DNA from: a virus
Strand: one strand, 5' to 3'
Length of the DNA stretch: 64,000 nucleotides
Virus record (IMG/VR): IMGVR_UViG_3300027973_002292
Location: 32,001-96,000 of that record
The translations under genes and the position numbers were made by a program. Below are positions 5,802 through 28,868 of this stretch, in pieces; positions within the stretch are counted from its first letter, which is position 1, and every line of letters begins with the position of its first letter. The notes under the pieces are model-generated. The model saw only the letters and a list, made by a program, of their open reading frames with translations. It had not been told where the DNA came from and made no database searches.

Positions 5802-6515
5802 ATGAAAGAAAAATGGCTCCACGTTTTTACATTAGATAAAACGCAAAAGGTAAAAGAAACGATTGTTGAAAAAGACGAATCTGGAAACGAAGTGCAGATT
5901 ACTAAAGAAGTAGAGAAGAAAGTCCCTCAACGTTTTTGTATCTTAAAGCCTACCAGAAAGATACAAGATGATTCTTCTATTTTTTATTCTGTTAAGGTCT
6001 CTGAGGCTATTAAACTAGGATTAATAACTAAAGCATTTTTGCTGAGGAAATTTCAAAAGGATGGAGTTCTAGCTTCAGATGACGAGAAGAAGGAATATAC
6101 GAATAATTATTCTAGAGCTATAATGATAGAGGTAGACGCTGAAAAGATTAAGAATGACTCTAGCCTTTCAGATGCTGAGAAGGATCTTAAGATTGCTAAT
6201 ATTAATGATGACTATAAGTCTTTGAGACAAAAGCTTTTTGATTACGAAAGCGTTCAAAATTCTTTATTTGATAATACGGCAGAAAAGAGAGCTGCGGATT
6301 TGCTCAATCTTTGGTTTGTACTAAACTTGCTATATTCAGGAGACGAAGGTTCCGAAACTTGCCTTTTCGGAGATGGAACTTTTGACCAAAGAATGGAAAG
6401 GTTGAATCAAATTGAAGACTCTGAAGATCAATTCTTAACTGGAGTTGTTGAAAAGGGAGCCTTCTTGATTGGCCAATTGAATTCAGGCGTTAGCAAGGAA
6501 GACCTTGTAACCTAA
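5802..6515 (+). CDS. Putative tail assembly chaperone
   Basis: Charged helical protein between the tail tube and TMP genes; the call rests on synteny only. Confidence 0.45.
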   Translation: MKEKWLHVFTLDKTQKVKETIVEKDESGNEVQITKEVEKKVPQRFCILKPTRKIQDDSSIFYSVKVSEAIKLGLITKAFLLRKFQKDGVLASDDEKKEYTNNYSRAIMIEVDAEKIKNDSSLSDAEKDLKIANINDDYKSLRQKLFDYESVQNSLFDNTAEKRAADLLNLWFVLNLLYSGDEGSETCLFGDGTFDQRMERLNQIEDSEDQFLTGVVEKGAFLIGQLNSGVSKEDLVT

Positions 6516-6520
6516 TAGAT

Positions 6521-7513
6521 GTGACAGACACTTATACAAAAATAAATTTACTAAAAAGTTTATACGGAGAAATTTGCTTGGGCTTTTCTGAGTTTGAACA
6601 TTCAGGAAAGCCTATTTTTATTAGACATTTCACAGAGATAGAAAATGGAATGCTCAATAAGAAAAGAGAAGCATTTCTCAAGGAGGCTGTCGAGAAAGGT
6701 TTAGATCAAAAAGAAGACAAGCTAATTTTCTTAATGCGGGAAAATATTTGGGATAGAGAAAATGAAATACGAATAGAATCTCTAAAAAAACAAATATCAG
6801 ACACTAACTTAATCCTTCAGAATTTGATAGTAAAGAAGCAAATTAATGAAACTAAAAGTAGAATAAAATTGCTAGAAACCGAAGCCTCAGAATTAGAAAA
6901 AGAAAAATCTTATCTTTTAGGTTTTTGTGCTGAAGATTATGCGGAAAAGTTATTTAATGAGCTGTTTATATTTCAAGCTTTCTTTAAAAACGAAGATCTT
7001 AAAGAGAGGTATTTTACAAAAGAAGAATTCGAAGAGTTAGATGAAATAGAACTTACAGATCTTGTGAGGTCTCTAAATTTATTTTATCAAAAATTTTCAC
7101 TTAAAGAAATCAAAAGAGTAGCTGCTTGTTCGTTTTTAATGAGCTTATTTCATTTATGTAATGATAACGCTTATTACTTTTACGGTAAGTATATTAAAGA
7201 CTTAACTGTCTTTCAAGCTAATTTATTTTCTCAATGCAAGTACTTTAAATCATTAATACAAAACAAAGCTCAAGCTAACCCTCCCGAAGATGTTTCCGAA
7301 GATCCTGATAAGATGATTGATTGGTACGAAATGGTGATAAATTCTGACATTGGAAAGGCTGACGATAACGTTTTAGGAGTTGGCCATATTGGAGCTTCTA
7401 CAGAAGAATTGCAAAAGATGGCGGGCGGAGGAGCTTCCACATTGTCAGAAATAGCTAAAAAGAAAGGAAATAAGCTTACTAGAGAAGATTTTATTAAAAT
7501 GCATGGAATATAG
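6521..7513 (+). CDS. Putative tail assembly chaperone (second)
   Basis: GTG start, coiled-coil segment and PPEDVSEDPDKMIDW motif; directly precedes the TMP. Confidence 0.45.
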   Translation: MTDTYTKINLLKSLYGEICLGFSEFEHSGKPIFIRHFTEIENGMLNKKREAFLKEAVEKGLDQKEDKLIFLMRENIWDRENEIRIESLKKQISDTNLILQNLIVKKQINETKSRIKLLETEASELEKEKSYLLGFCAEDYAEKLFNELFIFQAFFKNEDLKERYFTKEEFEELDEIELTDLVRSLNLFYQKFSLKEIKRVAACSFLMSLFHLCNDNAYYFYGKYIKDLTVFQANLFSQCKYFKSLIQNKAQANPPEDVSEDPDKMIDWYEMVINSDIGKADDNVLGVGHIGASTEELQKMAGGGASTLSEIAKKKGNKLTREDFIKMHGI

Positions 7514-7518
7514 TGTAA
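7513..7518 (+). promoter_or_regulatory. GTGTAA motif, putative late promoter element of the TMP gene
   Basis: TAGTGTAATAAATA overlaps the upstream stop, 23 nt before ATG 7542; an AAGGAA RBS follows. Confidence 0.5.
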
Positions 7519-7541
7519 TAAATAAAGGTTAAAGGAAAAAT

Positions 7542-10500
7542 ATGTCTACTACAATTACAGCGGGACTTAGAGTTGATACGTCTGCGGCTTACAAAGATAT
7601 TGATCTTTTTAAGTCAAGAATAAATAAAAGCTTCAGTCAACCACTAGGAAGAATTAGTGGTGACGCAGCAGAGTTTTCTAAATCACTGCAAGCAGCCGCT
7701 GCCCGCGTAACAGCATTCGGGGCTACTACTGGAAGCATTTATTTAGTTACTAAAGCTATCTCAGAAACAGCAAGAGCCACAATAGAAGTAAATAAACAGT
7801 TAACAGAACTAAATACTTTCTTAGGAGAGTCTGAGTCTAGTCTTCAGAACTTTAGCAAAACTTTATTTTCAATCGCTAGAAATACAGGCTCAACTTTTTC
7901 TGACGCTACAGAAGCTGCTAAAGAGTTCGCCAGACAAGGCTTGTCAACTGAAGAGACATTAACCAGAACTAACGATGCGCTTGTCTTATCTAGAATTTCT
8001 GGTTTAAATTATGCTCAATCGGTAAACAGTATAACGACTGCTCTTAACGGTTTTAGTAAAGAAGCTTTAACTAGCACAGATATCATAAATAAGCTAATTG
8101 CTGTTGACACAAGATTTGCAGTTAGCTCTAAAGACCTAAGCGAAGCTCTAACCCGCGTAGGAAGTGCTGCTGAAGAAGCCGGCTTGTCTTCTGATCAATT
8201 GGTTGCTACAATTACTACTGCCCAACAAATCACTGGTCGTGGCGGTGCTGTAATCGGTAACGCTTTAAAAACAATCTTTACAAGAGTAAGAAGACCAGAA
8301 ATATTAGATCAGCTTAAGCAAATCGGAGTAGTCGTTACTGATCAAAATGGATCTCTGCTTAATGCTATTGATATTCTTAAGAACTATACGAATGTAACAA
8401 AAAATCTAAGCCAAGCTGAAAAATCAAGAACAGCAGAGCTTCTTGGCGGTGTTTATCAGATTAACCAATTACAATCAGTCATTAGAGACTTGGGAAGCGC
8501 CAACAGTATTTATGCAAGCTCTCTTAAGATTTCTATAGGAGCTACAGATGAGGCTATTAAGAAAAATTCCGAATTAAATAAAAGCTATGCTGCGCTAATT
8601 AATGACACTGCAAATTTAGCAACGCAAGTTGGGTCGGATATAGGTAAAAGCTTGTTTGGGCCAATTATTTCTGGCGGGGCTGGTGTTACAAAAGCAATAT
8701 TAGAATTTCTTTCTCCAGAGAGCATTGCTCCTCAAATTGGTAAAGCTGGGCAAGAAATTGGAAAAAATTTATCTAGAGAAATTGGTAAGGGAGTTCTAGA
8801 CACGCTTGGTAATGCATTGGTTTTCGTTGGAGCGCCAGTTGCGGCTGTAGTTGCTGGGTCTATAGGTAAAAGGCTGCTTTCGTTTTTAGGCGCATCAGTA
8901 AAAACGCAAATAAAAGGCATCACAGATCCATTAGGGAGAGTCGTTACGGGAGGCTCTTTCAGCGGAGATAAAGAAAGAGAGCAATTAAATTTAATAAATC
9001 AAATTTCAGATGTTGTAAAGAAAAATAATTTTATTGGTGAAGCTACCGTTAAGGGAGTCTATAATGAAGGCAAAGCTAGAAGAGAGGTTTTAAAAGAAAT
9101 TTTAGCACAAAATTCTCTACTAGAAAGACAAGCAAATTTAGCCCAAACAATTTTTAATACAATAAGTAAAATAAAGCCCACTGTTACAACTATAGGGCAA
9201 GTAAATTCTTTTGGATTAAATCAAGTTAACCCAAGGAGAAATGCTAAAGGAAGATTTGTTGCTTCTGGATATATTCCAAATTTTTCAATGGGATTAGCAG
9301 AACAAGAAGAGTCTGCTGCAAAAGGGTTCGGAGCCAAAAATCCTAAGGCTCGATTAATCAGAGCTACAATCAAAGGTAAAACTGGCCCAGTAATGATTAA
9401 CGACGAAGAGGATGTGGTTCCTAATTTCGCTGGCACAGGAGAAACAGCAATCATTCCTAGATACAGAAACGTTAAAGACATCCCCAGAATGGCTAAGGGA
9501 TATGTTCCTAATTTTAGTAACGCATCAGGAAGTTTTGGAACTGTTTCTAAGATTAATGAAAGCCAAGTTAGAAAAGAGTTTTTTTCTGGAGCAGGACAAT
9601 CAGGAGCAGGAGAAATAGCTAATGAATTTTTGGCTTCTAGAAAATTATCTGAGCAGATTCAAGCAAGCAGAGAGCTTGGTTATCAGGGCATGCGTGGAGG
9701 ATATATAGGAAAACTTTTTGAGGCTCCTCATACATATGGCACATTAGAAGACTCTATTAGATCTGGATCTATAGTCAAAGGCTTAGCTCCGGGAAAAACC
9801 GCCAAAGATATCGGAGATAATCTAGATAAATATACAGGAGAGTATAAAAATTATTATGAATTAGTAACAAATTTGGGAAGACTATCTGCTAAACAAATCA
9901 ACTCTGGAAAAGCAATGGAGGCCAGAGATTTAGCTAATTTTGGAAATTTAATGCTTAATAAAAAAGCAGAAGATCTTATTACTAAAATAGTTTCCAGAAA
10001 AGGGAGCGATAGACTTGTAGGGAAAATGAATAGTTCTTGGCAATCTACTAGTAGAGTAGCAGAAGGATTAGCTAGACAAGGAGCAAGAATTAGTATAGTT
10101 GATCCAGGTATTTTTGGAGGCTTAGGCGAAAAGAGAAAAAAAGAATTAGCAAAACTTGGCTATCAAGATAATTATCGTGAAATGACTGGGGCAAATGCTG
10201 CTGGTTATATTCCTAATTTTGCTAAAAAAGATAAATATAAATTCCCAAATATTTCTTCTAATAAGATGGAAGCAAATATTGGCAAAAATTTTGAAAAACT
10301 AACCCCTGAGAATCAAAGATATTTCGCAAGAGCTTACGAAGATTACAACAATTTAATTAAAGTTTTTTCTAAGGCTTCTGGAACTTCTCCAGAAAAGTTT
10401 GCTAATGTAATGTCTGCCCTTTCTCCTGCTAACCCATTAGAGAGAAACGCATTAGACGCTTTAAGATATAACTTGTTCTACCAAAAGAAACTCTCAACAG

Positions 10501-13500
10501 CAGCTTCTCCAATTTTCATAGACGAAAGAGAAATAGGGTCGGTAAAGGCTCAAACATATGGAGCAAACAGAACTAAAGCTGCAAATTTACTTGTTGGTTT
10601 AGAAAAGCTTACAGGAAATAAGAGAAAATCGTTCGTAAACAACATGTTAGATCCATTTCAAAGCACGGATGTTACAGTTGACTACAGAGCTCAAGGCGAC
10701 GCATTGAATAAACAATTTAATGTAAAAAATGCCCCTTCTATGAATAGGGAGCAATATGATAAAGTTTCCCAAGCGTTCAGAAACGTTGGATCTAAAGCAG
10801 GCGTTAGTGGTTTGGGGGTTCAAGCAGCGACTTGGATTGGTGGAAGAATGGGTTCTAAAGCTGCAAGAGGACAAGATTTCAATAGAGGAATTTTAAAATT
10901 TTTCTATGATAATCCAGATAAGATTAGTTTAGAGAATCTTGAGTTTTTGCTTTCTGTTCCAGGAAAAGGAAAGGCTAGAAAGGATTTCTTTAAAAACGCT
11001 TCAGCGATGGGTGTTTCTAAATTGGGATCTGATAGTCTTATTTCAATTCCAAGGGTAGGCGGGTATGTTCCTAATTTTGCAGGGTTTAATTTATCTACTA
11101 TAAGATTCTTGACTAAAGCTAGTGCTAAAATGTCTGGTTCAGTTCTTTCGCCTAAAACGTTAATAAAATTTGCTACTGGAAAAGGAAAAGTGGAGGATCT
11201 TGTAAATCCATTCTTAGATTTCTTAAAAAAACCTGCTGATCTTATTAATAGCCCTCAAGATTTAGAGGATGCAAAATCTGTTATAAATCTTATATTTAAA
11301 AATAATCAAGCTAGAGAAATGGCAGCTAGCAGGCTAGCTCCAATTATTAATGAGTCAAGTTTTAGTGTTAAATCTCAAGAAGAAGCGGTTTCTACAGGAA
11401 TACAATACCCCGACGGCGGAAGAGGCTATAGAGACTATAGAGATTTTTTACGTTATAAATTATTGGGCGGCCAAAAAGAATACGAAGAGTATGTAGGCAA
11501 CGAGTATGGCCCAAAAGCTTTAATTAAAAATAAAGATGGAAGTTATAGATTCAATCCGAAATCTACACAAGGACAATTAGAGTTGTCTGATGTTAGACAA
11601 GCAGCTAAAGTTTTATTTTCTACTCCAGAACAAATTGCTGAATCGAGAGCATTAATGGTTGGCAGGGATGTCCAAAAACAGTATAAAGCAAGAAAATTAG
11701 GACCAGAAGATAATGTTCCTGGACCTAACCCATTTTTAGGCTATACATATAAATTAGGAAGATTTATTGGTAACGTAGGAAAGAAAAGAAAAGCTGTAAA
11801 ATACACAGATAGATGGGATGTAGAATTACACCAAGGAGAAAGAGATGTGATGGAGAATTTTTTAAAAAACACATCTGAAATTTCAGATTTAGAGACAAGA
11901 AAACAAGTCGCCAATTATTATATAGATAGAGACTTAAGCGATAGTAGTTACGCTGGAGATATAAATAGTTTAATAGTGAAAGAATTATTATCTTCTATTC
12001 CTGGAGCAAACCCAATACTTTTAAAAGGCGCAGCTAGAGCTCCAAAAGGAGAGAGCATTTTCGCAAAAGGCTATATTCCTAATTTCTCTGGCTTATCTGA
12101 TTCAATAAGCAGAGAGAAATCTATGACTGGTCTTCCGGTTTCTCAAATCATGGCTCATTTTGATAAGAGCGGAAATCCAATAGCAGTAACAAACAAAAAA
12201 GATGAGCCTAATGGTCTCAAAGATGTAGTCCCAAATTTTGCACCGAGAGTAAAGGTTCCAAAAACTCCAAGAGGTAAAAAAGGAACAACTGCGGCTCAAG
12301 TTTCTGATTTATTTAGTTCTTTTTTTGGTGAGTCAATTGGAATAGGGCTTTTTCAATCTTTATCAAGCACATTAGCTGACAGAGAAGTCTTGTCTGAAGA
12401 TGTTAATACAGCAACGCAAATTGGTGCGCCTGCTCTCCTGGCGATTTTGCAGGGCATGAGAGGCTTAAAAGCTTCTAAAGGTCAAAAGCTGGGAGCAAGA
12501 GCTGCAGCGTTAGGCGTACCAGTAGCTTTAGGGGGAGCGCAAGCAGCCATGGGGTTTTATGCTTCCAGATCTGTTGGCGAAGATCTCCAAAGAAGAAAAC
12601 TTGAAAAAGAATCAGACAAAGCAGCAAAAGAGTTTAAAGACTTAACAGAAGGAACTCAAGAACTTGCAGATACTCTGTCCAAATTAAATGAATCTTTTAA
12701 AGACGCCTCATCGTCTCCAGAGCAATTATTTAATTTAAGTAAAAGAGCCTCTGAGTTAACAAAAAACGTAACTAAAAATAATCCTGCACTAGCAGCGGCA
12801 ATTTCTTCAGAGCCTAATGTAGAAAAGAAAATTAATTTAATAGAAGATGCTCGCAGAAAAGCCTCTCAACAACAAGCGGTAAAACAAGAAATCATACAAT
12901 TCGAAGGGTCTAAAACAAAATCTCCAGAAGATTTAATTAATTTATTTTCTAAAGAAATTTCTTTGGCTAATGATAAATTATTGCAATTAAACAGCAAAGA
13001 TTTAGTGCCTGCAAATTTTGATAAAATTCTTTCTGATGCTGATTTAGTGCCTTTAAAAACTTTCTTTGACCTTCAAAAAGAAGAGATAAAAAACAAATTA
13101 ATCCCATCATTTTTAGAGGCTGTAAAATTAGAAATAGAATACAATAAAATAAGTAAAGAAAGCATTAAACAAATAAAAGTTTTAAAAAGCGAAGAGATCA
13201 AAGCTAGCAAAGAGATAGAGGGAAAAAAAGTAAGAAGACAAGCCGGTTTAGAAGCTTTAAAATCGGGAGCTGAAGAGCTGAAGCCTTTTGCCGGTCAATT
13301 CGGGGCTAGAGCAGCTATTTCATTCGAGTCAGATCTTCAAAAAACAAAAGAGTCTATTTCAGCAATTACATCTTTCAGAACTCAAATAAACACAAAGCTA
13401 ATAGACAAAGACTTAAAACTTCCAACTAATGTTACTGATAAATTGCAAGGAATTCAAACTCCTGGGCAAGACGCTGGGGCTGTATTAGCAGAATTATCTA

Positions 13501-16500
13501 AGACTCCTGGTTTAAATGAAAAACAAATAGAAGCTCTAGAAGAATTAATTACTACTAATGAAACCCAATCTAGAGAGCTTAAAAAGATTTCCGACATTTC
13601 AGAAATAAATAAAAATGCTCAGCTTAGGGTTTTAAGTATTCAAGAAAAGTTAACCTATGGCGGCGGCATAAAAACCAGCATAGACTCTAGATCAAGAATC
13701 GATTCTATCAATGCTCCAATAAAGGGCCTTCTAGAAAGCAGACTAGGAGCAACTCTTGGTTCCGAAAGATCTCAAACTTCTGGAATGGTTAATGTAGTTA
13801 AATCTATTAAAGACTTATATCCTGGTCTTATAGAAAATTCTAAAGCTCTTGGGTCTGTAAGAGATAGGTTAACTAATCTTAGAGCTAATGACTTGAGAAA
13901 AGATCTTTTTAGGAACGCTTCTTTATTAGAATCCGCTGGCGGATATGGAGATATTCCTGGAATGCTAAGGGCTAAAGGGCTTGATTCTGAAGGATTGAAA
14001 ACTTTAGCAGCTACTCAAGCCGAAGCGGAGCTATCTGGAGGGAACTCTCCTCAAGAAACTACTAGATACTTAGCGGATGTAATTAAAGCCGCTACTGCTG
14101 ATTTAAATCTAACAATACAAGAAGGCCAACAAATTAAGGCTTTGCAAGAAAAGACTGCTGCTCCAGTAGCAGAAATAAATAAAGAAACTGAAGTCGCTAG
14201 ACAAAAATTTTTAACTTCGCTTACAGATTCTGTAAAAAAAGCTTTTGGAGAAAAAATAGACGTCCAAACTGTAAACATATCTAATGCTAGTGTCAATATA
14301 ACTCCGTCTTCGACATCTCAATCTGGAGAATCTTCTGGCGCAGCCCAAGCTAGGGCTTCCATGGCCACTATGGCATCTGGAGCGTCTGGTCCCAGAAGCA
14401 AAGGGTTTATTCCTTCTTTCTATAACCCCTTAAGAGAGGCGGTCCAAAGAGAAAGCCAATATGTTCCATTTAGTTCAATAAGAATTAACAAGAGCAATAA
14501 ATTAATAAATCAAAATAACCCACTAGGTTTAGGCGTGACTAATACAATTGATGAGCCAAATGGTTTAGCAAGTATTGGTTTAGCTTCAAAGGGATATGTT
14601 CCTAATTTTGCTTCTAAATCTAAAATTTTAGATAAAGTTCTAACAGATAAAAGTTTGTATGGGCCTAAAATATCTAAACAAGCTCAAGGATTGGCTAAGA
14701 AAGGTGAATTATGGGGTCTTGATTACGCAGCTTCTAATCCAAAGAAGGGAGATTACGTTCTATATAAAATAAAACCAGATGGCTCTTTAGGAGAAAGAGG
14801 TATGCCAAATAAAGGCGATACCGTTTTGAGCCACGTTGCAGCAAGCAAGTTCTTAGGAGGAGTAAAAGATCTCCTTCCTATATCTAAATTAGCTGAACCT
14901 CCAAAGAGTCAAGAAGCTTCGTTGGCTGGCGGAACTATTTTACCAACTTCAAGCATAGATAAGATAATCAGAGATGTTAAAAAGAAAGGCGGATCAGCTA
15001 CAGATCTTCAAAAAGCTGTAGAAACATTTGCTAAACAAAATTTATCTACATCTAATTTCTTAATTAAAACTGGAGTAGGCGATTTGTCAATCCAAAGCAA
15101 AGGAGTTTTCGGAATCAATTCAAAGCCACTAGATTCTTCAGCTTATGGAACAATTTTAAATGATTATGGAAGAGGAAAAGGTAAAAGTTCAGATTTCTTT
15201 ATTCAAGAAAAAGCTCAACTTTCTGATCAACATAATGAGTCAAGAGTACATGTAGCTATTGATGGGAAAGGCAACGTTAAACTTGTAAGGAATGGAACTA
15301 TAGACAAATCAACAGGAGGGAACCTTGCTAAAGGGTCTTATAGAAGAGCTGCGGAAAGAGCCGCTTTGCAAGCTGCCGAAGCATTCGTTAAAGCTAATCC
15401 AAAATTGGCAAAAAATCAATTTTTAGGTTTAGATGTAGGAGCGGTCGCAGCTACAGAAGGTAAGAGACTTGGGTTAACAACAAAACCTTTTAGCGAGTTG
15501 GGCCAAAAATTTAATCCAATTGTTTTTGAAATAAACCCAACAAGCAGAAGAGGAAGTCAAGGCGGATCTGGATTCGTTTCCGCTGAAAACCCTTTTTCAA
15601 AAGCAAGCCCATCTGTTTTTAATTCTATTTTATCAAGACTTGGAGTTAAATCAAATAATAAATTAGTCCAATCTAACGTTTTAGAAGCCTTATCTAAGGG
15701 AGTAATGGGAAATGATACATTATTAGGATCTGTAAAAAATAAAATTGCAGATACAAATATTCCATTTCCAAGCTCATTTTTTGGAAAAGTCAAAGGAGCT
15801 TTTTCAAGCAGTTCTTCTAAAGTTAAGTCTTTGTTCCAGAATGCTGGAGCTAAAATTTCAAATCTTGGCAATTCAGTTTTTGGTTCAGTTGGCTCTAAGT
15901 TTTCTGGTGTAACCGACAAAATTGGAGCTGGGTTATCTGGTCTCACTGGAAGAGTTAAAGGAGGCTTAGGGGGCATGGCGGCTGGGTTATCTGGTCTCAC
16001 TGGAAGAGTTAAAGGAGGCTTAGGGGGCATGGCGGCTGGGTTATCTGGTTCCTCTGGAAGAGTTAAAGGAGGTCTTTCTGGAGTTTTGACTGGATTAGGA
16101 TTTTTGGGCAATGTGCAGCAAATAGGGGAAAATAGGGAAGCTGATAGAAATTTAGAGGAGTATCTTTCAAAAGCAGCTGCTACATCCATTATACCCGCTG
16201 CGGCACTTGGTCTTACAGACTTTCTTGCGGGGGGGAAACTTTCGGCTAAGCATGAGGTTATTAAGGGTAAGATAGGTAAGGTAGCATCGAAAGGTTTACA
16301 AGCCGCTTCAGCTTTTAGCACCGCTGCCGAATCAGCAACAGAGTTTAGAGAAGGAAATTTCGGATTAGGGGCAGTAAAAGGAGCCGAAGCGGCAGCTTAT
16401 GCTGCTTCGCTGTTCGAAGGGGTAGGCAAAACGTTACCTAAGGGAAAAGGCCTTTTAGGCTCGCTTGGTAATGTTACTCCAAAAGCTTTATCTCAAGTAG

Positions 16501-17951
16501 GCGGAAAAGCATACGGAATAGGCTCTGCTTTGGGCTTAGGCGCAGAGATAGCTAAAGCTAAGGATAACGCTATAGCTGAAGACTATTCTGACATACTATT
16601 TGGCAAAAAAGAAGAGGATATAGATCCTGAGACTGGAGAAGTGACCAAGGGAAGATCTATACTAGGTGCAGGATTCGATGTTTATGGAACCGCTATGGGT
16701 GCTATAGCTGGCGGACCAGTTGGTCAAGGAGTAGCTGCATTTAAGATAGGCTATAGAGCCGGAAATGTAATAGAAAATCAAGCTGGCCTTGGAGAAAAAC
16801 TCGGCAAAATATATGAAGATAAAATCAATAAAGAAAGAGGTGGAGAAATAGCCATTAGAGAAGCTAGATTAAAAGCAAAGAAAGAGCTCTTTAAAGACGC
16901 AAAAGATCTTGAAATCAGGATAGCTAAAATAGAAGAGCAGGGCAAAAAAGGCGTAGAAGAAGAGAGAATTAAAGGAGCAAAAGGTCTTGCTGAAGTTTAT
17001 AAGGGATCTCAAGCCGATAAAGAGAAAAACGACAAAGAAAAAACAGCCCCTTTGAGAAAAGGAATTATAGAAGGTATTGTAAAAAATCAAGAGGCTAATG
17101 GCTTATTCACCTCAAGAGACAAGGCCAATTACTTGATGAGCCAAGAAGCTATCTATGGAAAATTTAAGCCCGAAGAATTTGCAGACAAGGAACTCTACAA
17201 GTCTTACGAAGCTTATTCTAAAGAAAGAGAAACTACTCAAGCAAGAGAGCAAAAATTTAATTCTGCAGTAATGAATCCAGAAATGGCTGGATCTCAAACC
17301 TATAAAATTGATCAATTTAGAGCCGAATCAGAAAGACAATCTGCTATGTTAGCTTCTGCGCCAAAAGACGCTTTAGAAGAAGCTATGAGAAGGGGAGTCT
17401 CTGTTGAGCAGGTAATAGAAGAGAGAAAAAAGATTAATAAATCTAGAGGCTTTATTCCTAACTTCTCTAACGCTTACAATAGAGAAAAATTAGACATCCT
17501 TAGAAATCCAGATTACTCTGGCTATAGAAACGCTGTTCCTCAGCCATCTAAATACTATAAAAATATAGTAAAAAACAGCGCAGAGATTGAAGTCCCGGCA
17601 GCTGAGGTTTATAACAGAATGGGATATTTTGGAGCAACCCCAAAGAACCCTTCCGAGCAATACGCTATTCTCAATCCAGCTCAGCAATCTAAATTGGGAT
17701 ACGCTTCAGGCGGATTCGTGCCAAACTTTGCTGCTGAACAATTTGCTGGCGCTGTTAGTGACGCTATGCAAAAAGCGCTATCTCCATTAATAGACAAGGT
17801 CGGAACTTCAGTTAGTAACTCTAATGTTATTAATGTAAGCGATCAAAGATCTTATCAAACTGGCTCCGATAGAATTACTGGTATAATGGAATTCTTATAT
17901 TCTCAATTCCCTAAGGAAATGGGAAGACAAATGGGCCCTAAACTAGTATAA
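7542..17951 (+). CDS. Tape measure protein (TP901-type core) with motif-delimited inserted enzyme-like domains, 3469 aa
   Basis: N-terminal TMP core (FARQG...ALVLSRISG...ITTALNGF...INKLIAVD..FAVSSKDLSEAL..VGSAA...GAVIGNALKTIFTR), Ala/Gly-rich hydrophobic segments and coiled coils. It follows the tube and chaperones and contains 11 PNF-type repeats. Confidence 0.9.
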   Translation: MSTTITAGLRVDTSAAYKDIDLFKSRINKSFSQPLGRISGDAAEFSKSLQAAAARVTAFGATTGSIYLVTKAISETARATIEVNKQLTELNTFLGESESSLQNFSKTLFSIARNTGSTFSDATEAAKEFARQGLSTEETLTRTNDALVLSRISGLNYAQSVNSITTALNGFSKEALTSTDIINKLIAVDTRFAVSSKDLSEALTRVGSAAEEAGLSSDQLVATITTAQQITGRGGAVIGNALKTIFTRVRRPEILDQLKQIGVVVTDQNGSLLNAIDILKNYTNVTKNLSQAEKSRTAELLGGVYQINQLQSVIRDLGSANSIYASSLKISIGATDEAIKKNSELNKSYAALINDTANLATQVGSDIGKSLFGPIISGGAGVTKAILEFLSPESIAPQIGKAGQEIGKNLSREIGKGVLDTLGNALVFVGAPVAAVVAGSIGKRLLSFLGASVKTQIKGITDPLGRVVTGGSFSGDKEREQLNLINQISDVVKKNNFIGEATVKGVYNEGKARREVLKEILAQNSLLERQANLAQTIFNTISKIKPTVTTIGQVNSFGLNQVNPRRNAKGRFVASGYIPNFSMGLAEQEESAAKGFGAKNPKARLIRATIKGKTGPVMINDEEDVVPNFAGTGETAIIPRYRNVKDIPRMAKGYVPNFSNASGSFGTVSKINESQVRKEFFSGAGQSGAGEIANEFLASRKLSEQIQASRELGYQGMRGGYIGKLFEAPHTYGTLEDSIRSGSIVKGLAPGKTAKDIGDNLDKYTGEYKNYYELVTNLGRLSAKQINSGKAMEARDLANFGNLMLNKKAEDLITKIVSRKGSDRLVGKMNSSWQSTSRVAEGLARQGARISIVDPGIFGGLGEKRKKELAKLGYQDNYREMTGANAAGYIPNFAKKDKYKFPNISSNKMEANIGKNFEKLTPENQRYFARAYEDYNNLIKVFSKASGTSPEKFANVMSALSPANPLERNALDALRYNLFYQKKLSTAASPIFIDEREIGSVKAQTYGANRTKAANLLVGLEKLTGNKRKSFVNNMLDPFQSTDVTVDYRAQGDALNKQFNVKNAPSMNREQYDKVSQAFRNVGSKAGVSGLGVQAATWIGGRMGSKAARGQDFNRGILKFFYDNPDKISLENLEFLLSVPGKGKARKDFFKNASAMGVSKLGSDSLISIPRVGGYVPNFAGFNLSTIRFLTKASAKMSGSVLSPKTLIKFATGKGKVEDLVNPFLDFLKKPADLINSPQDLEDAKSVINLIFKNNQAREMAASRLAPIINESSFSVKSQEEAVSTGIQYPDGGRGYRDYRDFLRYKLLGGQKEYEEYVGNEYGPKALIKNKDGSYRFNPKSTQGQLELSDVRQAAKVLFSTPEQIAESRALMVGRDVQKQYKARKLGPEDNVPGPNPFLGYTYKLGRFIGNVGKKRKAVKYTDRWDVELHQGERDVMENFLKNTSEISDLETRKQVANYYIDRDLSDSSYAGDINSLIVKELLSSIPGANPILLKGAARAPKGESIFAKGYIPNFSGLSDSISREKSMTGLPVSQIMAHFDKSGNPIAVTNKKDEPNGLKDVVPNFAPRVKVPKTPRGKKGTTAAQVSDLFSSFFGESIGIGLFQSLSSTLADREVLSEDVNTATQIGAPALLAILQGMRGLKASKGQKLGARAAALGVPVALGGAQAAMGFYASRSVGEDLQRRKLEKESDKAAKEFKDLTEGTQELADTLSKLNESFKDASSSPEQLFNLSKRASELTKNVTKNNPALAAAISSEPNVEKKINLIEDARRKASQQQAVKQEIIQFEGSKTKSPEDLINLFSKEISLANDKLLQLNSKDLVPANFDKILSDADLVPLKTFFDLQKEEIKNKLIPSFLEAVKLEIEYNKISKESIKQIKVLKSEEIKASKEIEGKKVRRQAGLEALKSGAEELKPFAGQFGARAAISFESDLQKTKESISAITSFRTQINTKLIDKDLKLPTNVTDKLQGIQTPGQDAGAVLAELSKTPGLNEKQIEALEELITTNETQSRELKKISDISEINKNAQLRVLSIQEKLTYGGGIKTSIDSRSRIDSINAPIKGLLESRLGATLGSERSQTSGMVNVVKSIKDLYPGLIENSKALGSVRDRLTNLRANDLRKDLFRNASLLESAGGYGDIPGMLRAKGLDSEGLKTLAATQAEAELSGGNSPQETTRYLADVIKAATADLNLTIQEGQQIKALQEKTAAPVAEINKETEVARQKFLTSLTDSVKKAFGEKIDVQTVNISNASVNITPSSTSQSGESSGAAQARASMATMASGASGPRSKGFIPSFYNPLREAVQRESQYVPFSSIRINKSNKLINQNNPLGLGVTNTIDEPNGLASIGLASKGYVPNFASKSKILDKVLTDKSLYGPKISKQAQGLAKKGELWGLDYAASNPKKGDYVLYKIKPDGSLGERGMPNKGDTVLSHVAASKFLGGVKDLLPISKLAEPPKSQEASLAGGTILPTSSIDKIIRDVKKKGGSATDLQKAVETFAKQNLSTSNFLIKTGVGDLSIQSKGVFGINSKPLDSSAYGTILNDYGRGKGKSSDFFIQEKAQLSDQHNESRVHVAIDGKGNVKLVRNGTIDKSTGGNLAKGSYRRAAERAALQAAEAFVKANPKLAKNQFLGLDVGAVAATEGKRLGLTTKPFSELGQKFNPIVFEINPTSRRGSQGGSGFVSAENPFSKASPSVFNSILSRLGVKSNNKLVQSNVLEALSKGVMGNDTLLGSVKNKIADTNIPFPSSFFGKVKGAFSSSSSKVKSLFQNAGAKISNLGNSVFGSVGSKFSGVTDKIGAGLSGLTGRVKGGLGGMAAGLSGLTGRVKGGLGGMAAGLSGSSGRVKGGLSGVLTGLGFLGNVQQIGENREADRNLEEYLSKAAATSIIPAAALGLTDFLAGGKLSAKHEVIKGKIGKVASKGLQAASAFSTAAESATEFREGNFGLGAVKGAEAAAYAASLFEGVGKTLPKGKGLLGSLGNVTPKALSQVGGKAYGIGSALGLGAEIAKAKDNAIAEDYSDILFGKKEEDIDPETGEVTKGRSILGAGFDVYGTAMGAIAGGPVGQGVAAFKIGYRAGNVIENQAGLGEKLGKIYEDKINKERGGEIAIREARLKAKKELFKDAKDLEIRIAKIEEQGKKGVEEERIKGAKGLAEVYKGSQADKEKNDKEKTAPLRKGIIEGIVKNQEANGLFTSRDKANYLMSQEAIYGKFKPEEFADKELYKSYEAYSKERETTQAREQKFNSAVMNPEMAGSQTYKIDQFRAESERQSAMLASAPKDALEEAMRRGVSVEQVIEERKKINKSRGFIPNFSNAYNREKLDILRNPDYSGYRNAVPQPSKYYKNIVKNSAEIEVPAAEVYNRMGYFGATPKNPSEQYAILNPAQQSKLGYASGGFVPNFAAEQFAGAVSDAMQKALSPLIDKVGTSVSNSNVINVSDQRSYQTGSDRITGIMEFLYSQFPKEMGRQMGPKLV
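9261..17729 (+). repeat. Dispersed peptide repeat xxG[YF][IV]P[NS]F (9 full copies plus 2 DVVPNF copies) in the TMP
   Basis: Copies start at 9261, 9411 (DVVPNF), 9492, 10197, 11055, 12063, 12222 (DVVPNF), 14397, 14586, 17442 and 17706. Synonymous codons differ, so conservation is at the protein level. Confidence 0.9.
15927..16073 (+). repeat. 54-bp tandem repeat (18 aa, AGLSGLTGRVKGGLGGMA): two identical copies plus a partial diverged third
   Basis: GCTGGGTTATCTGGTCTCACTGGAAGAGTTAAAGGAGGCTTAGGGGGCATGGCG at 15927 and 15981, with a partial copy from 16035. Confidence 0.95.
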
Positions 17952-23463: not shown

Positions 23464-26400
23464 ATGGGAGAAGTCAAAAAAAATAGCTCGATAAATATAA
23501 CTAGAAGAATTGGTTCAAGCGTAGAAAATCTTTCGAACAAATTATTCAATGGTTATATTTATAATATGTCACTAGATGTCGGCTACAATGGGGCCGCGAC
23601 AGTATTGACTTTGAACTTAGCTCTAAATAGAACCATTAACCAAGTAAAACTAAATAAAGACGTAATATCTGACAGAAAAAAAGATATTAAAAGAGTTAAA
23701 TCTCTAGTCGCTACTCAAAAAACAGTTCCGTTAAATTACGTTGGCAACACAGGGAATTCTGGAGCAGGAACATATATAGGAGCTCAAAATCAAATAGCGC
23801 AAATTTCAGACAAGGATTTCAATATTGATCCAAATTACATTGGTACAACATGTTCTTATGATATCGCTATCTACGATCCTCTTGGAAATCCAACTTATAA
23901 TTTTAGAAATTTTAAGATAGTTACTTTTTCAATTAGCAAAAAGAATGATCAGAAAATTCTTACTTTAGTACTTAAGGATAATTCTTTCGTTTTAGATAAG
24001 GTTTTTGTTGGGCTATTGGGGCAAGAAATAGCTATTGATTATAGATCAGAAACTGACGCGTTAGTAAGTGGTATTACAATATCTTGCCCACAAATAGGAA
24101 CAACATGCAAAGCTGGCACTGTAACTCTTAATAATTTGAGGCAGAGTTTGCATTTTTCAAATAACAATTTCAAAAATAATTTTTATAATCAATTAGGAAT
24201 AGGAAAAGATAAAAACTATTCTAATATTAATATTTCTGCTGGAGATGTGGTGTCGACCGATAAGGCTAATTACGTTATTATATCATCTAAAGACGCGAAT
24301 AAAAGCATATACAAAGGCTATGGAGCGGTAATTATTCTTGGAGAAGAGGAGTTTAAGGATGCGCCTTGCGCAGCCGCAGAAGTTTCTTATTCGTTTGACA
24401 CTTTCTTAAAAGCGATAAAAAAATTAGGAATAACAATAACTGAAAATGATAGACCAGCGAATGCTCCGCTTACAGTTGATTATAGTTCAATAAAAGATAA
24501 ATCTGCTGGTAAATTAAAGAAGTCTTTTCATGGCACTCTAAGACAAGTATTAAATCAATGGTGCGAAGAATTTGGATACTCTTACTGTATTGATTTCACC
24601 AAGTCTTCAAGCGATGCTTTTGTTATTAAAGGTATTGATCTATCTTCCAGCTTAGGAAAAGAGACTGTTCTTTCTACTAAATTAGCGCTAGAAGATCTAG
24701 AATCAAGCGCGTCGAATTCTACATTTGTTGTAAAATCAGAAGATTTTTCTTATGATTTATCCCAACAAAAATTAAAGATTTACTCTTCTTATTACTTTAA
24801 AGACGCAAAAGAAAAAACAATAACTCACCAAAATGATTTGGGAAATAAAGCTTTCAGAAGCATTAGTTTGTTAACTGAATTCCCTCAGCTATTTGGAAGC
24901 GGAATGACGGGAAAAAAAGAGTATGGAGCTGGGTCTACTAGAGTTAGAGATTTTTCTGGAGCTTATAGAAGTTATGAGGAGGTTCTTACGTCTGCTATCC
25001 TTGGAAAACACTCCCCAAGACTAAGGGAAATATATAATTACAGCATTGGAGCTTATCAAGCTTTGGGATTTGTTCCTTTTTATGGAGACTCATCTTCTTC
25101 TAGAGTCCAGTTGCCAGCAGATAAAACATTAATATTCTCAGAAGCAATTTCTCACGTTTTAGAATATCAAAGTCAAAATTTATTTCATGAAGACGGCTCG
25201 CCTTGCTACGATATGGGTTTAGGATTTTATAATGAAGAGCTTTCAAGAACAGTATTGGAACTAGAGTCTTTTATCGCTGATTTCGTAGGAAGATATTATT
25301 GGACTGATTTAATATCAGTGCTAGATGGAGAATATGGAAATGAAAATTACTATGCTAAATACGAAGTGTCTTCTTCGGCTCCAGTGCAGAAAGTCTTAGC
25401 CGGACAGTTATATAATTTAGATGTTTTCAAAAAAGCTAGATATTTAATTCAATCTATAGCGGCCGTTTTCTCCACAGGAACGACTCAATACTTCAACGCT
25501 TACAATTCTTTAAACGAAGCCGCTGTTAATATAAATAATATATGCGATCAAGCTCAGAAAGCTTACGCTCAATTGCAAGGAAACTCTTTGGCTTTGAAAA
25601 AATTCAGATTCTTCTACGAAAGAAGTACTGCGTCTTATGGTGTATACCAAGAATTTATTAATGACATTCAAAACTTAAAGGTTTCAATAGCTGGCAATAC
25701 AACTGCAGCACCAGAGCAGATTGATTTAGCGCAAGTTTACTCTCCTACTTTTAAAGAGATGTCTCCAGTGTCTCTTGGGTTATTGCAAGCAGCTTTACCA
25801 ATTGACATATCTAACGTAGCATTAGGATCATTTAAATTTGGTGTTTTGATTGGAGTTGTTTCGTACAGACAAATTTTTAATTTCACGCCTCAAACAAATA
25901 AACCTAATCAAATAGAAATACAAAACAGCATTTACTCAAGATGCGCAGAGCTTCTTAAAATTAATACCTCTGGTCGTCCTAGTACTGTAGCTAAAAATAA
26001 AAAATCATGCAGTAAAACTTTACTTTATGAAACTTGCGTCAAGCCTTGCGATCAAGCGTCCACAGACATGGGCATAGATGATACTGTAAACTTTGTTTCT
26101 GGCCCAAATCCATATAGTTGCTTTAGAGTAAGAATAGATAGATATAATACTAAATTCTTGGATAATTTTGTTTTGGGACAATTATTCAGACCCGTGTCTA
26201 GTAATGGGTCTTTAAGCTTAGAGGCAATGGTTGATAATCAAGCTTCGGTTTTAGTATCTAGCGTAAGAAAAGCTGGAAACACGCCTTATACGGAATTTAA
26301 AACATCAAATCAATACGAAAGTATAACTGCGCCATCTACTGAGACTTACCAAATAAGACTGATAAGCACTACAACTTCTGAGAGTTTTATGCCTTTTAAA

Positions 26401-26934
26401 AATTATATTTTAGGAGGAGTAGAAAATCCCGACGATTTATTAAAAATTCTAAATAACGAAAATTTTTCATTAGATTTAAATGTAAATAATATTACCCCGA
26501 ATGTTAGAGAGCTTTTTGGAGATGAAACAAATCCATCATTTATTAACGCTCCGGTTGATCTAACAAGAGTCGCAGACTATCCTGTTTTTATTCAATATCA
26601 GGGATACAATGGAGATAATCCTACTTATGAGTTTTCTACTTTTTATAAATACCATAACGCATTAAAGACTTACTACGATTCTGCTTCAATATCGCTTTCA
26701 GAGCCTAGCGTGAAATTTTCAGCAGACATTTTTTGCAGTGAAATATCTTCTGGGCTTAGAAATTTGCTTACGGTTGATAACGGATTAACAAAATTAAATA
26801 TAAATTTAGCAGAAAATGGTTTAAATATCAATTGCTCTTTCGATAGCTCTCCAGCTTCATTAGTGAATCTGGAAACGTTAATAAATAAAAATAAGCCAAA
26901 CATTAAACTTTTAAATACAAATTATTTCCAATGA
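23464..26934 (+). CDS. Putative baseplate hub / Tal-like tail-tip protein, 1156 aa
   Basis: Hub-like motif FHGTLRQVLNQWCEEFGYSYCID and C-terminal strand GLTKLNINLAENGLNINCSF; consistent position in the tail module. Confidence 0.45.
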   Translation: MGEVKKNSSINITRRIGSSVENLSNKLFNGYIYNMSLDVGYNGAATVLTLNLALNRTINQVKLNKDVISDRKKDIKRVKSLVATQKTVPLNYVGNTGNSGAGTYIGAQNQIAQISDKDFNIDPNYIGTTCSYDIAIYDPLGNPTYNFRNFKIVTFSISKKNDQKILTLVLKDNSFVLDKVFVGLLGQEIAIDYRSETDALVSGITISCPQIGTTCKAGTVTLNNLRQSLHFSNNNFKNNFYNQLGIGKDKNYSNINISAGDVVSTDKANYVIISSKDANKSIYKGYGAVIILGEEEFKDAPCAAAEVSYSFDTFLKAIKKLGITITENDRPANAPLTVDYSSIKDKSAGKLKKSFHGTLRQVLNQWCEEFGYSYCIDFTKSSSDAFVIKGIDLSSSLGKETVLSTKLALEDLESSASNSTFVVKSEDFSYDLSQQKLKIYSSYYFKDAKEKTITHQNDLGNKAFRSISLLTEFPQLFGSGMTGKKEYGAGSTRVRDFSGAYRSYEEVLTSAILGKHSPRLREIYNYSIGAYQALGFVPFYGDSSSSRVQLPADKTLIFSEAISHVLEYQSQNLFHEDGSPCYDMGLGFYNEELSRTVLELESFIADFVGRYYWTDLISVLDGEYGNENYYAKYEVSSSAPVQKVLAGQLYNLDVFKKARYLIQSIAAVFSTGTTQYFNAYNSLNEAAVNINNICDQAQKAYAQLQGNSLALKKFRFFYERSTASYGVYQEFINDIQNLKVSIAGNTTAAPEQIDLAQVYSPTFKEMSPVSLGLLQAALPIDISNVALGSFKFGVLIGVVSYRQIFNFTPQTNKPNQIEIQNSIYSRCAELLKINTSGRPSTVAKNKKSCSKTLLYETCVKPCDQASTDMGIDDTVNFVSGPNPYSCFRVRIDRYNTKFLDNFVLGQLFRPVSSNGSLSLEAMVDNQASVLVSSVRKAGNTPYTEFKTSNQYESITAPSTETYQIRLISTTTSESFMPFKNYILGGVENPDDLLKILNNENFSLDLNVNNITPNVRELFGDETNPSFINAPVDLTRVADYPVFIQYQGYNGDNPTYEFSTFYKYHNALKTYYDSASISLSEPSVKFSADIFCSEISSGLRNLLTVDNGLTKLNINLAENGLNINCSFDSSPASLVNLETLINKNKPNIKLLNTNYFQ

Positions 26935-28334
26935 TAATTTCTGGACTTAAATATAGAAGCTTAGTTAGAGATAATGCGTTTTCAGCAGCGTTTGATTTGT
27001 CTTTCTCTAATGTTGCAGGAACAGCTCAAGTAGGTTTCAGCGGTCAAAATAAAACGTATAAATTTTCATTCATAAGCGGAAAAGTTTTAGATGACCAGGG
27101 AAGATATTTCTATTCATACACTCCGAATCAATTGTTTTCTTTAAGCACCAATTTTTCTGGGGTAGCTTACGATTACGCTGTAAACAACCAAATTGTTACA
27201 TACTCTGGATCAAAGCAGAATTTTTATGTTGATAATTTTTACGTCAATACTACCGGTGTTAATTTAGAAACATCAATAACCATAAACGCTGATAAGCCAA
27301 GTTTAACGCTTTATTACCCAGATTCTTTTATAACTGGTCAGTTTATCACTGGTTATTTAGTAACAGATTCTCTAAGTGGAATTAAATTATTCACTGGTTC
27401 TTTTGATGATTTATCTTCTTTTTCTTTCGAGAGTCTGCCCACTGGATATGTAACTTCAGTTTCTAGCGGTCAAGTGATAATAAAACAAAAAGATCCCTTT
27501 GTGGGAAAATTAATTTCAGCTTTTAATTTGGATACTAATGCTGGAGCTTATTCTCAAGATATTACAGTTACTGCTGCGGAAAAACCGTTTTTAAATTATG
27601 TTTTTAATTTTAATAGCTCTTCTCCAGATCCGAATTCTTCTAATGATTGGGTTTCTTCTTTAAGTGCTCAAGGGGTTGAAACTGGAATATTGAAAACTGC
27701 CGAAGCGGAATTCGTTTATTCCTACGCAACAAATTATACAAATTTACAGCCAACATCCTTGCCGTTAGTTATTTCTTTGTCTTACGTTTCTGGGACTACT
27801 GGATATTACGGATTAGTTACTGATGTTTCTATGGTCAGTGGAGGCAATGGTTACTTAAGCTCTCCAACAGTAATTTTTAGCGGAGGAGGAGCGTCTGTTG
27901 CTGCGTCTGGGCAAGCTGTGCTAGGTGAAACAAGAAGCAATTTCGATCAGGTTAATTCTATTTTAATGTCTTATGATGGTTTAGGATACACATCGGCTCC
28001 TAAAGTATTGTTTTCTGGAGGCTCAGGCATCATAAATAATGCTTATCCATCAATAGCTTCTGGAAATGCAAATGTGGTTCAATATACAAAATCTTTTACA
28101 GGATGCTTTAATCTCTACACTGGAATCAATGGAGACTATAAAGAGTTCAGATCTCAAAACTATACTTCTCCAAGCGGATACGCTAGGTCTACTTCTTTTA
28201 TTTATTTCGATAGTCCAATTAATATAAAAGTTGAATATAAAACAACTTACGATAACAATCCTCTAGTGGCTAAACTGTCTGTTAGTGGAGTAGATGGAAA
28301 TATAACAGAAACATTGATAACAGGAATAAAATAA
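26931..28334 (+). CDS. Virion structural protein with G-x-GY-x-S-x-P-x-V-x-FSGG repeats
   Basis: GGNGYLSSPTVIFSGGG and DGLGYTSAPKVLFSGGSG, a repeat type common in phage baseplate and structural proteins. Confidence 0.55.
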   Translation: MIISGLKYRSLVRDNAFSAAFDLSFSNVAGTAQVGFSGQNKTYKFSFISGKVLDDQGRYFYSYTPNQLFSLSTNFSGVAYDYAVNNQIVTYSGSKQNFYVDNFYVNTTGVNLETSITINADKPSLTLYYPDSFITGQFITGYLVTDSLSGIKLFTGSFDDLSSFSFESLPTGYVTSVSSGQVIIKQKDPFVGKLISAFNLDTNAGAYSQDITVTAAEKPFLNYVFNFNSSSPDPNSSNDWVSSLSAQGVETGILKTAEAEFVYSYATNYTNLQPTSLPLVISLSYVSGTTGYYGLVTDVSMVSGGNGYLSSPTVIFSGGGASVAASGQAVLGETRSNFDQVNSILMSYDGLGYTSAPKVLFSGGSGIINNAYPSIASGNANVVQYTKSFTGCFNLYTGINGDYKEFRSQNYTSPSGYARSTSFIYFDSPINIKVEYKTTYDNNPLVAKLSVSGVDGNITETLITGIK

Positions 28335-28867
28335 TGCAATCAAGAACTTTAAAAACATCAACGCTAACGACATCTTTTTTAGATCTTTATATTTTTAATT
28401 ATAATGGTGATCAAACAGCTTTTGGGTTTAATTCTTTGCCGGCCACTAATCTTATGTTGCGTCAAAAAATTGCTAAATTCGTACCAACTGCCGCGACTGT
28501 TTTCGCTTCTGATTTTATTAATTATACCGAGGGCAAAATACTATGCGTCAATACTCAAACCTTAATGAATAAAGATGTATTTAAAACTTTTAACTCCGTA
28601 TCTAATACTTTGAAATTTACATTAGTGTTAATGCCAGAAGAATTTATTAACTCTAAGCCTAATCAGCTGACGTCTCCATATGTTTATGGAGAAAAGATAA
28701 GAGTAATTGGATGTTTCGAAGCAGTAAAAGAAACAACAACTGTTGCTGGTACAACTCAGACTAAGTTGTCTAGAAATAAAATTTATATCTATAGAGATTC
28801 TAATCTCAAAGGAAGAAGCAAGGGCGGCCAATCTCAATCTGGAACTGGAGTAGGAGTGTGGAGTTAA
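28334..28867 (+). CDS. Hypothetical structural protein
   Basis: 177-aa ORF coupled by a TAATG overlap, in the tail module. Confidence 0.6.
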   Translation: MQSRTLKTSTLTTSFLDLYIFNYNGDQTAFGFNSLPATNLMLRQKIAKFVPTAATVFASDFINYTEGKILCVNTQTLMNKDVFKTFNSVSNTLKFTLVLMPEEFINSKPNQLTSPYVYGEKIRVIGCFEAVKETTTVAGTTQTKLSRNKIYIYRDSNLKGRSKGGQSQSGTGVGVWS

Positions 28868-28868
28868 A

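Follow-up and report, generated by a model that had tools for sequence, protein, structure and literature searches.

The tape measure protein (TMP) encoded in a 64,000-nucleotide stretch of DNA from an uncultured freshwater phage (positions 32,001 to 96,000 of IMG/VR record IMGVR_UViG_3300027973_002292, here called the window) appears to be built as a conserved scaffold, running from an N-terminal domain through two long ruler stretches to a C-terminal piece, into which two slots for exchangeable cassettes are set, with copies of a short conserved peptide punctuating the whole. At least two of the cassettes, one kinase-like and one of the ATP-grasp type, are predicted from structural models to have enzyme folds with intact catalytic residues, and the phage tail probably carries such ready-made enzymes into the host. 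The peptide, for its part, may serve both as a handle in the protein and as a joint for cassette exchange in the DNA. We regard this explanation, taken jointly as scaffold, cassettes, cargo delivery and dual-role peptide, as moderately probable.

Identity of the protein and its punctuating peptide

The record that harbours the window is linear, 127,648 bases long and approximately 84% complete. PF10145 (PhageMin_Tail) matches residues 113-301 of the 3469-residue protein with an E-value of 1.4e-28 (100.6 bits, against a cut-off of 33.2), and 13 of the 14 PHROG families matched within its first 1000 residues are annotated as tape measure proteins, with a best E-value of 1.2e-49. On sequence grounds the protein is a TMP, as a preliminary description of the window had proposed, and one of the TP901 type. 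A hydrophobicity scan finds hydrophobic stretches at residues 417-451, 1654-1672 and 2878-2896.

The hexapeptide G[YF][IV]P[NS]F occurs nine times in this protein, with its glycine at residues 576, 653, 888, 1174, 1510, 2288, 2351, 3303 and 3391, and the variant DVVPNF occurs twice, with its aspartate at residues 624 and 1561. The preliminary description had these counts and places exactly, its positions starting two residues before the glycine. No six-residue motif of this kind appeared in any of 2000 residue shuffles of the TMP, and the looser pattern [IV]P[NS]F is present 12 times compared with a shuffle mean of 0.08. When the class pattern of the motif was sought in the 266 open reading frames (ORFs) of at least 50 residues in the whole record, 11 copies were found in the TMP, while two other ORFs had a single copy (AYIPNY in one, NFVPNL in the other); within the record, the motif is specific to the TMP.

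Across 482 distinct copies from this and related TMPs the consensus extends to nine residues, [AS]xG[FY][IV]PNF[AS]. Glycine and proline are kept in 100% of these copies, asparagine in 95% and phenylalanine in 90%, with Ala or Ser at position -2 in 89% and at position +6 in 81%. The codons had been described as varied, and this is so for glycine but not for the other residues examined: in 223 distinct copies from 76 genes, proline is encoded by CCT in 67% of cases compared with 33% in the remainder of these genes (p 4e-24, a value inflated by the relatedness of the genes, of which the test takes no account), isoleucine by ATT in 70% compared with 51%, and valine by GTT in 63% compared with 47%. 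Two of the copies in the present gene share an identical run of 21 nt.

Four copies of the motif are included in the two AlphaFold2 (AF2) models described below, where their residues have predicted local distance difference test (pLDDT) values of 22-59, suggesting that the motif lies in flexible linkers. Degenerate copies (DVVPNF, AIIPNY, IPxY) are found inside small conserved modules, at spacings down to 17-29 residues. The short modules between paired motifs (encoded at 9285-9515, 12087-12239 and 14421-14609) have RE(K/S) soon after the motif and NxxDEPNGL before the next copy, and have no match in Pfam; the type of 63 residues is present in 54 of 78 TMPs from IMG/VR.

A conserved scaffold with exchangeable cassettes

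A word-indexed search with residues 560-1570 of the TMP returned 47 giant TMPs of 1974-6026 residues, and in every one of the 47 the class pattern occurs three times or more. Relatives number at least 515 in IMG/VR, at least 420 in JGI metagenomes and 22 in GTDB genomes. A set of 162 complete TMPs, no two of them identical, includes 151 with at least two copies of the motif, the mode being four, and the 304 inter-motif segments of 100-600 residues in these 162 proteins can be grouped into 92 families, of which 22 have at least three members. A common small form comprises the N domain, an 82-residue module, a single cassette of about 270 residues, a 73-residue module and a long C-terminal part.

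The present TMP and the 47 relatives were split at the motif and the pieces clustered, giving a conserved scaffold and discrete families of tightly defined length, for example 431, 290, 242, 196, 171 and 103 residues. Since splitting at the motif could in itself force such a modular picture, BLAST alignments between the uncut proteins were also used. Of 8216 internal alignment ends among the 48 uncut TMPs, 45.4% lie within 10 residues of a motif, compared with 4.7% of random positions, and the median distance from an alignment end to a motif is 15 residues, compared with 165 for random positions. Both approaches place the motif at module boundaries in relatives as well, as had been suggested for this protein, and the proposed comparison of cargo with scaffold gave the expected outcome: cassette content differs between relatives while the scaffold is kept. 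Even the order varies, being D-E-F in this TMP (cassettes are lettered as in Table 1), D'-F-E in relative P0003 and D-E-c196 in P0005.

Pairwise identities show that cassettes and scaffold have separate histories. In relative P0004, cassettes E and F are 96% and 97% identical to those of the present TMP (P0001), while the scaffold pieces CC1, CC2 and Cterm are only 30%, 39% and 34% identical. P0007 shares cassettes D (89%) and E (90%), with an N domain of 52% and a CC1 of 32% identity, and P0009 and P0018 share cassette E at 90-91%, with N domains at 55% and 41%, respectively. Conversely, the scaffolds of P0003, P0005, P0006 and P0023 match the present one at 75-96% identity, but their sets of cassettes are different. 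Cassettes have thus been gained, lost, reordered and transferred between scaffolds that are only 30-50% identical.

The cassette region is also present in 20 listed sequencing runs (X1-X20), contributed by 15 freshwater, lake-water and drinking-water studies; two of the runs may represent the source sample. Contigs from four runs, each of a different study, were compared with the window; such contigs show presence and junctions, not absence. In run X4, a contig of 7977 letters matches positions 7000-9515 with 20 differences and continues with 707 letters that do not fit, position 9515 being the final base of a motif copy. The match of a second X4 contig begins at 10206, within a motif copy. 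A third joins 14611 to 15982 through 1586 other letters; because 14611 is only two bases past a motif copy, the ATP-grasp cassette is replaced in this run, and the right end of the replaced block falls in the tandem repeat at 15927-16072. In runs X7 and X15 the contig matches begin at 11068, again within a motif copy. The X15 material carries cassette F with two differences in 810 letters, its pieces on cassette E differ by 6%, and at 12085/12086, where a motif copy ends, pieces stop as well. All of these breakpoints (9515, 10206, 11068, 12085/12086 and 14611) are inside motif codons or within 2 nt of them, and homology thus breaks in the motif codons. Uncovered stretches, including 9688-10071 in X4, were left out of this comparison, as were joints with sides of fewer than 30 letters, which the repeated motif codons can themselves create (9468-10203 and 10225-11058 in X7, 9287-10203 in X15, 9636-12637 in X3 and 8287-10196 in X4).

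Predicted folds of the cassettes

Cassette D comprises residues 659-887. When 12 sequences that share 22-68% identity with the query are aligned, the columns G19, G22, K34, E51, D152, N158/N162 and D210 are invariant, and we read these as the probable GxxG, β3 Lys, helix-C Glu, D..N and DxG Asp of a kinase. The AF2 model of this cassette (pLDDT 78.6, predicted template modelling score 0.79) was compared with known structures by VIA, which gave Z-scores of 8.0 (root mean square deviation, rmsd, 3.3 over 132 aligned residues) and 7.9 to Rv3197 and 7.7 to Bud32; the rows returned were kinase-fold in 50 of 50 cases in one search and 49 of 50 in the other. Profile comparison with the PDB gave weak protein kinase rows (10 of 16, E 0.007-0.13), a PDB sequence search with cassette D alone gave nothing usable, and Pfam gave no match. 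The kinase likeness first suggested for this segment thus appears to hold in the model at the level of the fold, rather than as membership of a curated kinase family. The domain is rare: only eight relatives were found among 1.84 billion representatives. Seven of these, in proteins of 385-5338 residues, were new to that search, and in five of the seven (four of 2613-5338 residues and one of 385) the matching stretch lies between variants of the motif (GLVPNF, GLIPSY, GFVPNL). A search for related loci with cassette D alone gave 43 pattern matches, none of which was confirmed.

For the segment that follows the motif at residue 2351, the AF2 model has moderate overall confidence (pLDDT 61, with 60-92 in the core). 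The domain might conceivably form a graspetide-like cross-link on the short modules; the one modelled jointly with it has values of 22-66. Foldseek returned 24 matches at E <= 0.001, all of them ATP-grasp proteins (best E 4.3e-5, probability 1.00), including PurK, tubulin tyrosine ligase, biotin carboxylase, PsnB and Ddl. VIA, run against 48,161 chains, gave Z-scores of 9.9 to DcsG (rmsd 4.7, 195 residues aligned), 9.6 to BacD and 8.8 to LysX/ArgX, and the 14 rows with Z between 9.9 and 8.0 are ATP-grasp-type throughout. On the strength of these models, residues ~2439-2725 have an ATP-grasp fold, in keeping with the earlier suggestion. Sequence and profile searches of the PDB with the segment found nothing. 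The segment is present in about 19 of the 47 relatives, the rest keeping only the short module that precedes it, which marks it as the cassette of the second slot.

Cassette E is assigned to DUF7178 by its match to PF23802 (E 7.7e-21, 75.3 bits against a cut-off of 27), a domain also found in stand-alone viral proteins of 239-350 residues (Atlas clusters, score 0.96); a PDB sequence search gave no match that would favour the HhH-glycosylase likeness proposed earlier. Cassette F has no match in Pfam, in the PDB by sequence or profile, or in the Atlas (best score 0.80), and its earlier description as an unknown domain stands. Among its 11 members the stretches FLxYKLLGGQK, FxGxxxxxGxFxG and YxDxWDVxLH are kept across relatives that are 29-58% identical, and might serve an undescribed domain in catalysis or binding.

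Elsewhere in the family, relative P0018 has an ART-PolyVal domain (E 6.7e-25, residues 877-1037) that occupies a slot of 200 residues between motifs at 849 and 1049. Ten further cassette families of relatives were compared with Pfam; nine have no match and one has a weak cytidylyltransferase-like match (E 0.011).

The architecture first proposed, a tape measure with variable cargo between boundary motifs and with kinase-like and ATP-grasp segments, is therefore upheld in these respects, and the inter-motif lengths of 227, 278 and 328 residues are exact. It needs amendment for the fourth segment: this had been placed, at about 330 residues, between motif edges, and it does have a motif on its N-terminal side but no closing copy, the next being at residue 3303.

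Proposed delivery of the cassettes and possible roles of the peptide

TMPs are expelled from the tail ahead of the DNA. Taken together with the requirement of the predicted enzymes for ATP or NAD and with the hydrophobic stretches noted above, this leads us to read the cassettes as cytoplasmic cargo, which would reach the host cytoplasm at infection and act there before phage genes are expressed, in the manner of the RNA polymerase fused to the TMP of Thermus phage P23-45. At the protein level, the peptide would then be a handle read by one conserved partner at every boundary. That glycine and proline are invariant while the glycine codon varies, in scaffolds with identities down to about 25%, implies selection on the peptide. 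At the DNA level, its biased codons would provide 12-21 nt of microhomology, a joint for cassette exchange; the codon bias and the breakpoints both fit such a role.

Several observations weigh against this reading. The best Z-score for cassette D, 8.0, is only middling, Foldseek gave no match for it at E <= 0.001 (although the rows returned were all kinase-fold), and no Pfam kinase family matched at E <= 10. Similarly, no Pfam ATP-grasp family matched the ATP-grasp segment, or five aligned members of its family, at E <= 10. No candidate protease was found among 39 neighbouring proteins compared with PHROGs and Pfam, and searches of the ~84% complete record for S78, ClpP and MPTase-PolyVal were negative; the preliminary description had likewise seen no identifiable protease in the window. 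The inflation of the codon test, noted above, also counts here. Finally, folded domains of 230-430 residues should not fit inside the tail tube, implying that the cassettes either travel unfolded or sit elsewhere.

How might the peptide act? It may be an uncut grip whose docking partner is a tail chaperone, the tube, the small modules of the TMP itself or a host chaperone, and we consider this quite possible, if somewhat short of probable. The alternative that it is a protease site seems to us doubtful. Each copy in the TMP would in that case be a point of cleavage, whether in the tail or in the host, and the enzymes would be freed, with the last copy serving to remove the C-terminal 73 residues. 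This would account for nine conserved residues in disordered linkers at every domain boundary, for the Ala or Ser that comes after the aromatic residue in 81% of the 482 copies, and for the presence of a copy 73-115 residues before the C-terminus in 24 TMPs, a position reminiscent of the trimming that lambda gpH is known to undergo at its C-terminus. Set against it, besides the lack of a protease in the record or among the conserved neighbours, is the requirement that the ruler remain whole during tail assembly. The relatives, moreover, are binned with hosts of several phyla, which argues against a single host protease, and cutting at copies that lie 17-29 residues apart, or at degenerate ones within small modules, would yield useless peptides. 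These closely spaced and degenerate copies favour repeated gripping over cutting, although they are proof of neither, which must also be held against our own reading.

A bolder proposal, which we regard as less likely than either, is that the peptide is the universal handle of a programmable injection device. A domain between two handles would be threaded unfolded through the tail and, before the DNA follows, pulled or released into the cytoplasm with the help of a conserved cut or of the ratchet-like grip of a host-conserved chaperone, and lake phages would trade enzymes by means of the peptide codons.

An improbable alternative is that the cassettes are not injected effectors at all, acting instead in the virion or the cell envelope (in penetration or receptor work), or that they are stuffer that tunes tail length. 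The known accessory domains of TMPs are indeed mostly wall hydrolases (PMC1796659), and the 92 cassette families, most of which lack a Pfam match, leave functions open. Kinase-like, ATP-grasp and ADP-ribosyltransferase domains, however, need ATP or NAD, which are cytoplasmic, and no wall-hydrolase family was matched in this TMP or in the three relatives scanned. As to stuffer, scaffolds that are 75-96% identical differ by whole cassettes, which would give erratic tail lengths if every residue counted.

The idea that the peptide has no role in the protein, being a translated DNA recombination joint or module-shuffling linker, is very improbable, since the codon bias, the exact shared runs of up to 21 nt and the breakpoints in the motif codons that speak for it leave unexplained why the four core residues (100%, 100%, 95% and 90% of copies) are kept with a free glycine codon in scaffolds of about 25% identity.

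Three more specific identities for the peptide were considered and rejected. A Prp-type site of the Firmicutes, cut between Phe and Ala, is disfavoured by the binning of the nearest relatives with Flavobacteriales and by the absence of the motif from other virion proteins; a signal-peptidase-like A-x-G site would call for a hydrophobic region ahead of the motif, where there is none; and the pattern does not fit a mimic of a clamp-binding peptide or of the tail of single-stranded DNA-binding protein.

Organisation of the locus and neighbouring genes

The features of the gene are collected in Table 1.

Table 1. Features of the TMP gene and associated genes. Positions are those of the window except in the last row, where they are those of locus L191; residue numbers (aa) are those of the TMP.
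Feature	Position	Strand	Basis or remark
TMP gene	7542..17951	+	ORF, 3469 aa
N-terminal scaffold, aa 1-575, conserved, hydrophobic stretch aa 417-451	7542..9266	+	cluster 'N' in 44 of 48 TMPs; hydrophobicity scan
Motif copy 1, GYIPNF, aa 576-581	9267..9284	+	regular-expression scan
Two short modules (48 and 29 aa), ending in DVVPNF (9411-9428) and GYVPNF (9498-9515)	9285..9515	+	scan; alignment of 27 relatives
Cassette D, small protein-kinase-like domain (predicted)	9516..10202	+	invariant putative catalytic columns, AF2 model, VIA
Motif copy GYIPNF, aa 888-893	10203..10220	+	scan; run X4 contig match begins at 10206
Cassette E, DUF7178	10221..11060	+	PF23802
Motif copy GYVPNF, aa 1174-1179	11061..11078	+	scan; X7 and X15 contig matches begin at 11068
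Cassette F, unknown domain, conserved YxDxWDVxLH	11079..12068	+	11 members
Motif GYIPNF (12069-12086), 51-aa short module and DVVPNF (12222-12239)	12069..12239	+	scan, clustering
First long scaffold stretch (CC1), aa 1567-2287, presumed ruler	12240..14402	+	cluster in 37 of 48 TMPs
Motif GFIPSF, 63-aa short module and motif GYVPNF (14592-14609)	14403..14609	+	scan
ATP-grasp-like cassette, predicted fold ~aa 2439-2725	14610..15716	+	AF2, Foldseek, VIA
Second long scaffold stretch (CC2), Gly-rich tandem repeat 15927-16072, hydrophobic aa 2878-2896	15717..17447	+	
Motif GFIPNF, 88-aa module and motif GFVPNF	17448..17729	+	scan, clustering
C-terminal 73 aa beyond the last motif	17730..17948	+	cluster 'Cterm' in 24 TMPs
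Two genes (237 and 330 aa) adjoining the TMP gene upstream	5802..7513 (5802-6515; 6521-7513)	+	conserved with the TMP
1549-aa Peptidase_S74 protein and two Laminin_G_3 proteins	L191:3987-8633, 8722-9972, 9979-11208		

The two proteins encoded directly upstream of the TMP are the obvious candidates for partners of the peptide. Both are acidic, are encoded on the plus strand and rank among the most conserved genes of the phage group, being present at 75% cover or more in 146 and 156 of 185 loci, respectively. Neither has a match in Pfam or PHROG; from their position, they are probably tail assembly chaperones. Prediction of a complex of the two with residues 566-665 of the TMP gave a score of 0.00, which is evidence neither way. 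The wider set of 39 neighbouring proteins includes terminase, Laminin_G_3 proteins, a Peptidase_S74 tail-fibre chaperone and tail or Ig-like families. One ORF upstream of the TMP gene matches tail protein PHROGs.

Downstream, at 17959-48030, are nine large ORFs of 467-3262 residues with no Pfam match at E <= 0.01, the largest at 32038-41826, and six of the seven compared with PHROG also have no match. Upstream of the tail genes, record bases 23987-31208 encode a 1549-residue protein that ends in a Peptidase_S74 intramolecular chaperone domain (E 6e-15), followed by two Laminin_G_3 lectin-like proteins; these are probably fibres. The repeat in the second scaffold stretch has a 54-nt unit, present in 2.7 copies with 96% matches and encoding an 18-residue Gly-rich unit, and the corresponding region of a related TMP has a Gly-zipper match in Pfam. 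An ORF of 254 residues on the minus strand (15557-16321) lies inside the TMP gene and overlaps this repeat; it is unlikely to be a real gene.

Binning places the closest relatives with genomes of Crocinitomicaceae and Flavobacterium, which is a weak indication of host. Blastn with 7.5 kb of the gene found no match among 50,697 phage records, and in a tblastn search with residues 1-1570 cultured phages matched the N domain only, with the query end at or before residue 475 among the 30 matches listed. The two short motif-bearing modules gave no tblastn match at E <= 1 in the collection of cultured phages. To judge from these comparisons, none of the cultured phages in the collection searched can serve as a test system.

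Relation to known systems

Among the closest parallels are the polyvalent proteins (Iyer, Burroughs, Anand, de Souza and Aravind, 2017; PMC5512222), giant proteins of phages and conjugative elements that combine unrelated effector-type domains and are thought to enter with the DNA. The present TMP likewise combines several unrelated effector-type domains (kinase-like, DUF7178, F and ATP-grasp) in one giant phage protein, and ART-PolyVal, a marker of the polyvalent proteins, occupies a slot in P0018, although Pfam scans found no PolyVal marker domain in this TMP. The systems differ in that the carrier here is a tape measure, a word ('tape') that does not occur in PMC5512222, in that its domains are fenced by one fixed peptide, and in that the MPTase peptidase proposed there for processing was not found in this record.

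A cytoplasmic enzyme fused to a TMP has a precedent in gp96 of the Thermus phage P23-45, a TMP of 5002 residues whose N-terminal part is a virion RNA polymerase that is reported to transcribe the pre-early genes and is hypothesised to work at the TMP pore (PMC10770324). Compared by description rather than by sequence, it has one fixed enzyme, with no variable array and no fencing peptide described. Mycobacteriophage TM4 shares with the present case an accessory functional module inside the TMP, but wall-hydrolase motifs of the TM4 type (PMC1796659) are single, small and unfenced, and act on peptidoglycan outside the cytoplasm. The Sle1-type effectors of actinobacterial contractile injection systems resemble it in having a TMP-like platform with a swappable functional domain that differs between relatives (PMC13277306); they have a single C-terminal domain, are cargo of a cellular injection system rather than a phage TMP, and have no repeated junction peptide reported in the abstract.

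Our literature search, which left most subscription journals outside its reach, found no description of the peptide or of motif-fenced cassettes in a TMP. Outside phages, MARTX and similar modular toxins have exchangeable effector arrays between conserved parts, but these are secreted and have their own cysteine protease domain. The arrays here are likewise exchangeable, but no protease domain was recognised in the TMP. We regard the present TMP as a variant of polyvalent or TMP-fused enzyme cargo, one with a fencing peptide and swappable cassettes.

Should the cassettes indeed be delivered, aquatic phages in their hundreds would bring varied, pre-made enzymes into their hosts before any phage gene is read, and the TMP-fused cytoplasmic enzyme of P23-45, a single example, would be widened to a general modular system that has an exchange joint of its own. 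The 92 cassette families, most of them belonging to no known family, would then represent a large unexplored pool of host-takeover or anti-defence functions, and a short, portable peptide that marks tail cargo could be used to load proteins of choice into phage tails.

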